From a virus (taxonomy: Duplodnaviria > Heunggongvirae > Uroviricota > Caudoviricetes), in the IMG/VR virus record IMGVR_UViG_3300029490_000143: a stretch of DNA of 7,870 nucleotides, one strand, 5' to 3'. The position numbers were made by a program, and so were the translations under genes. Positions 1,262-1,466 of the stretch are shown here, in pieces; within the stretch, counting starts at the first letter, position 1; each line of letters starts with the position of its first letter. The notes beneath the pieces are model-generated. The model did no database searches. It was not told where the DNA came from and worked only from the letters and a program-made list of their open reading frames with translations.

Positions 1262-1466
1262 GTAGGTCGCATTCGGCACTTATTGTCGGATGCGATGCTG
1301 GCGCATCTTATCCGACCTACGAATCGCATCGAATCTGTAGGCCAGATAAGGCATTTACGCAGCATCCGGCACTTATTGTCGGATGCGCTGCTTGCGCATC
1401 TTATCCGACCTACAAATCGCATCGAACCGTAGGCCGGATAAGGCGTTTACGCCGCATCCGGCAAAT
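1262..1466. repeat. REP/BIME cluster: two tandem copies of a ~93-bp unit, each with GC-rich palindromic units
   Basis: GGCACTTATTGTCGGATGCG...CGCATCTTATCCGACCTAC...GTAGGCC(A/G)GATAAGGC(A/G)TTTACGC(A/C)GCATCCGGCA occurs twice (first copy from ~1275, second from ~1368). It lies between the convergent stops of the ybhJ-like and ybhC-like genes, typical of enterobacterial REP elements. Confidence 0.8.

Follow-up and report, generated by a model that had tools for sequence, protein, structure and literature searches.

A two-unit REP cluster of very probable BIME-2 type in the shared 3' gap of the convergent Escherichia coli genes ybhJ and ybhC

The DNA analysed here, a stretch of 7,870 nucleotides that we call the window, is Escherichia coli chromosome: a perfect match (100%) to strain 08-00022 was found over positions 1150-1600, where thousands of other genomes match at 93-98%. 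It opens with the 3' part of ybhJ (1-1245, + strand), a hydratase gene of the aconitase family that appears in the list of open reading frames (ORFs), matches ybhJ of E. coli 08-00022 at 100%, and has its stop codon at 1243-1245. Facing it is ybhC (1479-2762, - strand), identified from the ORF list together with the annotation of 08-00022 and K-12, which encodes a 427-amino-acid outer-membrane lipoprotein and putative acyl-CoA thioesterase. Because ybhJ ends at 1243-1245 on the + strand and ybhC occupies 1479-2762 on the - strand, the two genes converge on a gap of 233 bp (1246-1478), and the gap has the same length in K-12 MG1655, where it lies at roughly 805,765-805,997. Among 80 related loci that were fetched, ybhJ adjoins ybhC only in those of Escherichia and Shigella.

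In place of the usual ybhB-bioA region, the right two-thirds of the window hold a decayed lambdoid prophage at the lambda attachment site, together with IS elements. Positions 2809-2823, immediately upstream of ybhC, are an exact copy of the lambda att core (GCTTTTTTATACTAA); with the genes for a lambda-type integrase (2897-3967, -), a protein of 356 aa with Arm-DNA-binding and Phage_integrase domains, and for a 72-aa excisionase (3945-4163, -), this core places a lambdoid prophage at attB-lambda, where K-12 and 08-00022 have ybhB-bioA. Directly after int-xis come late-region genes, all on the + strand (a ybcO-like nuclease gene, 4118-4600; rusA, 4597-4959; the gene for antiterminator Q, 5167-5559), and the prophage appears to have undergone extensive deletion, which has left int-xis directly adjoining the nin/Q region. 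Two transposase ORFs, one of the Mutator family (IS256-type; 5680-6936, -; 418 aa) and one with an rve integrase core (IS3-family-like; 7206-7862, -), indicate that IS elements follow the prophage remnant. Of 5426 genomes, a single one covers 80% or more of the window.

The ybhJ-ybhC gap is occupied by a repeat array at 1260-1463, which fills 204 of the 233 intergenic bases and, like REPs in general, is extragenic, since it sits entirely between the two stop codons. An earlier note on this DNA had described, between genes that it took to be convergent and ybhJ-like and ybhC-like, a tandem duplication of units of about 93 bp, each with paired palindromic elements, and had placed it at 1262-1466, within two to three bases of the limits given here; both the setting, which the annotation of 08-00022 and K-12 supports, and the duplication were borne out. 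A seed-and-extend search for direct repeats matched 1260-1333 to 1353-1426 (89%, spacing 93) and 1337-1371 to 1429-1463 (91%, spacing 92). When a unit is defined as linker, z2, linker and y, global alignment of unit 1 (1278-1370, 93 nt) with unit 2 (1371-1462, 92 nt) yields 85 identical positions out of 93 and a single 1-nt indel, so the units are indeed copies of one another, the point on which that note had let its reading turn. The fraction of self-matches in the gap at an offset of 93 is 0.607, compared with a mean of 0.336 and a maximum of 0.407 in 500 shuffles. Tandem Repeats Finder reported no array in the ybhJ-ybhC gap, probably because the period is long and present in only about 2.2 copies, and its blank output does not make the repeat absent. 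The RefSeq tables of K-12 and 08-00022 likewise enter no repeat feature in this gap.

Read from the ybhJ side, the array begins with a decayed y REP (1261-1277, -; GTAGG..TCGCATTCGGC), a remnant in which GTAG and the 3' half are kept and the middle is lost. It stands in register with the 3' half of the inner y REP, the direct-repeat family beginning at 1260, and it was found in all one- and two-unit alleles among the fetched alleles that were aligned. Unit 1 then comprises a short head-to-head linker of S type, ACTTATT (1278-1284); a z2-like REP of 36 nt (1285-1320, +; GTCGGATGCGATGCTGGCGCATCTTATCCGACCTAC) that ends in CTAC on the + strand and was located by pattern search with 0 mismatches; a tail-to-tail linker of 16 nt, GAATCGCATCGAATCT (1321-1336); and the inner y REP (1337-1370, -), which was located with 3 mismatches and differs from the consensus by 3 substitutions. 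Unit 2 repeats this order, with a second ACTTATT (1371-1377), a second z2-like REP of 36 nt (1378-1413, +; 2 mismatches), a tail-to-tail linker of 15 nt that carries a 1-nt deletion relative to the first copy in the unit alignment (1414-1428), and the outer y REP (1429-1462, -; 0 mismatches), which is consensus and reads GCCGGATGCGGCGTAAACGCCTTATCCGGCCTAC on the - strand. The linkers were delimited from the sequence and the unit alignment.

Whichever strand is folded, three of the four full REPs form a strong hairpin (-16 to -21 kcal/mol, z between -3.7 and -5.3): the first z2-like copy at -19.4 / -19.9 kcal/mol, the second at -16.2 / -18.1 kcal/mol and the outer y REP at -20.9 / -21.3 kcal/mol. 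The hairpin of the inner y REP is weakened by its three substitutions (-8.9 kcal/mol on the + strand, -13.9 on the - strand), and the decayed y REP folds weakly (-5.8 kcal/mol, z -0.96). The REPs fold with a 7-bp foot stem, a 2x2 internal mismatch, an upper stem of 4-5 bp and a 4-nt loop, and the gap as a whole folds far better than its shuffles (z -7.0 and -9.7 for the two strands).

The BIME-2 repeat class has been described since the 1990s. The REPs of E. coli are imperfect palindromes of 30-40 nt with a conserved GTAG 5' to the foot, and are of types y, z1 and z2 (Ton-Hoang et al., PMC3333891); a BIME-2 combines a y and a z2 REP in inverted orientation, has a short S linker, and occurs in multiple tandem copies whose number at a given locus varies among strains (PMC3333891). 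In the ybhJ-ybhC gap, four REPs of 34-36 nt alternate in orientation, with GTAG at 1337-1340 and 1429-1432 and CTAC at 1317-1320 and 1410-1413. They belong to dispersed sequences, the y REP having near-identical copies at a median of at least 28 places per E. coli genome and the long REP, the z2-like variant, at a median of 4. The linker of 7 nt occurs twice, the tandem units of 93 and 92 bp are 91% identical, and their number at ybhJ-ybhC differs between strains, as detailed below. The alternation in orientation is exact, and so is the y REP, of which the outer copy is identical at 34 of 34 positions to the y REP of the published cluster REP325; its partner, of 36 nt, has a z2-like centre and 7 positions that differ from REP325 z2, 6 of which make up 3 compensatory pairs in the stem. 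This stem reads GTCGGAT...ATCCGAC as against the canonical z2 GCCTGAT...ATCAGGC, with a y-like G at stem position 4, and because of it a strict nomenclature might label the cluster an atypical BIME. An assignment to BIME-1 fails on the linkers, which measure only 7 and 15-16 nt, on the tandem arrangement of the units and on the 36-nt partner REP.

We are therefore confident that the element is a BIME-2-type REP cluster in the shared 3' gap of two convergent E. coli genes. It is a member of a long-described class and in that sense already known, its only departure being the minor variant of the z2 stem, although a literature search for ybhJ with 'extragenic palindromic' found no paper that names this particular BIME. 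The REP/BIME identity proposed in the earlier note thus stands, and can be refined in three respects: the cluster is of BIME-2 type, a third and decayed y REP precedes the two units, and about 10% of E. coli genomes carry a REP-free terminator allele instead.

The same note had surmised that the copy number might vary between strains and had suggested aligning the intergenic region across E. coli genomes. That alignment, run on the fetched E. coli alleles, separates three states: two units with a gap of 233 bp, in the window and, as an identical allele type, in K-12 MG1655; one unit with a gap of about 140 bp, in O157:H7, EcPF20, PAR and UID2309; and no REP, with a spacer of 69 bp, in AST240 and strain 103. 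A 64-nt probe for the inner junction, which marks alleles of two or more units, matched 2780 of 5426 complete E. coli genomes (~51%), in 7 of them at two places, and the 69-bp REP-free spacer was found in 527 of the 5426 (~10%), always once per genome; from these counts, made on genomes that are phylogenetically non-independent, the share of one-unit genomes can be inferred to be about 39%. An evenly spaced sample of 59 chromosomes, to which the same non-independence applies, agrees with that share (30 with two units, 23 with one unit, 6 REP-free).

Elsewhere in the genus, five units fill a gap of 513 bp in E. albertii, and a single unit is present in E. ruysiae, E. whittamii and a divergent 'E. 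coli' lineage. Two units, of which the inner y REP carries the three substitutions seen in E. coli, are present in Escherichia sp. E1V33, and Escherichia sp. MOD1-EC7003 has a lone y REP. Copy number would most likely change by unequal recombination or replication slippage between the 93-bp units, or else through TnpA-REP, the REP-associated Y1 transposase that recombines BIMEs in vitro (PMC3333891).

Three further loci came to light in this comparison. Shigella flexneri SFBU0723 carries a one-unit BIME allele between genes of which ybhC has a C-terminal match at residues 1-67 only and ybhJ a match of 81% over partial length, which suggests pseudogenisation on both sides of the BIME. E. coli ECMA0423 encodes a YbhC-like protein that shares only 47% identity with the query, beside a ybhJ-like sequence of 48% identity, in what may be a divergent paralogous locus. 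A contig of 632 bp filed under the actinomycete Streptosporangium vulgare encodes a YbhC fragment 98% identical to that of E. coli and looks like assembly contamination.

The REP-free spacer differs from the BIME alleles in its predicted signals. In AST240 (fetched locus 197-265), its 69 bp contain two hairpins that were scored as terminator-like and that face both convergent genes, one being followed by TTCTTTTTT on the ybhJ strand and the other by a T run on the ybhC strand. This spacer was absent from all other Escherichia species examined and was therefore probably derived or imported within E. coli. In the window, by contrast, a promoter and terminator scan of 1100-1650 returned no intrinsic-terminator-like and no promoter-like sites, and no hairpin is followed by a T-run; Rfam at gathering thresholds matched nowhere in the window, so that no curated RNA family covers the region. 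That the BIME alleles lack an intrinsic terminator and the REP-free allele has a pair of them lends indirect support to a function of the BIME at transcript 3' ends, and the absence of the BIME from about 10% of E. coli argues that the element is dispensable.

REPs situated no more than about 15 nt from a stop codon have been reported to depress expression of the gene before them by stalling ribosomes. In the mRNA of ybhC, the outer y REP begins 16 nt past the stop codon, which makes it a borderline case for such an effect. As RNA, the cluster would place hairpins at the 3' ends of both transcripts, where they might act as barriers to 3'-to-5' exonucleases and favour Rho-dependent attenuation, an effect described for the REP family (PMC2817692), and in this way could stand in for the intrinsic terminators that the BIME allele lacks. 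As DNA, the y REPs may be gyrase sites that relieve the positive supercoiling built up between convergent genes, a preference of gyrase binding and cleavage for y REPs being a family property of BIME-2 (PMC6379681). Roles of the REP family that involve gyrase, Rho and Pol I are treated in PMC6379681 and PMC2817692; two supplementary files of the former, a gyrase-mapping paper, make no mention of ybhJ or ybhC.

The BIME and the terminator pair are alternative fillings of the ybhJ-ybhC gap that segregate within one species, and it is possible, although we would sooner doubt it than assume it, that both do the same job and the locus is a natural allelic series. Were the fillings equivalent, the contribution of a BIME-2 to 3'-end formation, mRNA stability and supercoil relief between convergent genes could be measured at this locus. 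For tests of BIME-2 function between convergent genes, natural variation offers a REP-free state with terminators and states with one and two units in E. coli, and one with five units in E. albertii. In an element that is otherwise typical of its class, this alternation of BIME and terminator alleles in one gap is the only aspect of even mild interest.

A different main function, in place of mRNA 3'-end formation, would be that transcription and processing of the array yield small nucleoid-associated RNAs comparable to the REP325 naRNAs, which with HU would bridge cruciform DNA. The y + z2 architecture of the unit is that of REP325, down to an identical y REP; moreover, transcription is reported for almost 80% of the REP elements annotated in E. 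coli, and the activity of naRNA4 depends on secondary structure rather than sequence (Qian et al., PMC4550694). We nevertheless consider this role improbable at ybhJ-ybhC, where the array has only two units, one of them with a weakened y hairpin, where nothing ties the locus to HU or to nucleoid phenotypes and Rfam has no match, and where about 10% of E. coli do without the element.

Strong GC-rich hairpins in the gap between convergent genes could also be thought to constitute a conventional Rho-independent bidirectional terminator that belongs to no dispersed repeat family, the more so as a true terminator pair fills the same slot in 527 genomes. This explanation is more improbable still. 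The palindromes recur at at least about 28 (y) and about 4 (long REP) other places per genome, a recurrence that defines a dispersed family, and the blank scan of 1100-1650, with 0 terminator-like sites and no T-run after any hairpin, led us to reject a plain intrinsic terminator at the BIME allele.

The BIME-2 cluster has one by-product at the level of annotation. An ORF of 135 aa (1015-1422, -), seen in the ORF list and its translation, carries the peptide MRFVGRIRCAS(S/I)ASDNKCRM twice; REP DNA accounts for roughly the first 60 codons, and the remainder runs antisense to ybhJ. The earlier note had called this ORF spurious, and rightly so: a Pfam search with it gave no match, it is unannotated in K-12 and in 08-00022, the strain with the exact match, and across Escherichia its start and length follow the BIME copy number, from 80 to 156 aa (including 135, 147, 104, 88, 85 and 80). 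Coding potential was rejected on the lack of a Pfam match and on this variation of start and length. That it might still be a real gene for a protein with an internal repeat, of which the DNA repeat would be the mirror, can be set aside almost entirely, for although the frame is open from an ATG, the period of 93 bp is a multiple of 3 and the frame antisense to ybhJ is open in several Escherichia species, the ORF belongs to no Pfam family and is annotated neither by PGAP nor by the K-12 curators, its N-terminal part consists wholly of REP DNA that recurs in tens of intergenic regions elsewhere, both its length and its start codon differ in every allele (in E. albertii it stops before ybhJ), and the REP-free allele is devoid of the repeat-encoded part, start codon included. 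Gene callers can thus produce false ORFs with internal repeats from REP arrays of this kind.

For comparison with known clusters we took two published BIME-2 loci, REP325 (yjdM-yjdN) and sucB-sucC, with their sequences from K-12. REP325, published as a (Y-l-Z2)x6 BIME-2 (PMC4550694), shares with the ybhJ-ybhC array the alternation of inverted y and z2-type REPs, the tandem units and a location outside genes, at their 3' ends. Of the six y REPs in REP325, five read GCCGGATGCGGCGTAAACGCCTTATCCGGCCTAC, the sequence of 1429-1462 (-) in the window. Its z2 REPs were found to be GCCTGATGCGACGCTTGCGCGTCTTATCAGGCCTAC, of 36 nt; the long REP of the window has the same length and geometry, but a variant stem sequence. 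The period of REP325 is 100 bp, compared with 93 bp at ybhJ-ybhC, and its linker sequences are different ones. The sucB-sucC BIME has head-to-head linkers of 7 nt, as does ybhJ-ybhC, but differs in linker sequence and in its period of about 89 bp, against 93 bp. Relative to both of these loci, the array at ybhJ-ybhC has only two units, and its inner y copy is degenerate. The head-to-head linkers of 7 nt, the tail-to-tail linkers of 15-16 nt and the strain-variable copy number are nevertheless those of a BIME-2.

The BIME between acs and yjcH, one of the places at which the long REP recurs, contains a REP of 36 nt that is identical to 1285-1320 of the window. Common to both loci is a module of y REP, 7-nt linker and z2-variant REP, after which a decayed REP follows, and the linker, GCTTGTT at acs-yjcH, is similar to the ACTTATT of the window. 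The acs-yjcH BIME differs in being a single unit, in its tail-to-tail linker and in its gene context. Beside acs in E. coli SK1144 (fetched locus 1-343), an IS3-like element of the IS1397 family is annotated adjoining that REP, in place of yjcH; its placement fits with the reported targeting of REPs by some IS elements (PMC1525189).

BIME-1, finally, in which y is combined with z1 and to which the RIP and RIB elements belong, resembles the ybhJ-ybhC cluster in pairing a y REP with an inverted second REP (PMC3333891). It differs in occurring as single copies and in having a long, conserved L linker, often with an IHF site, whereas the window has short linkers, a partner REP of z2 length and a unit repeated in tandem.
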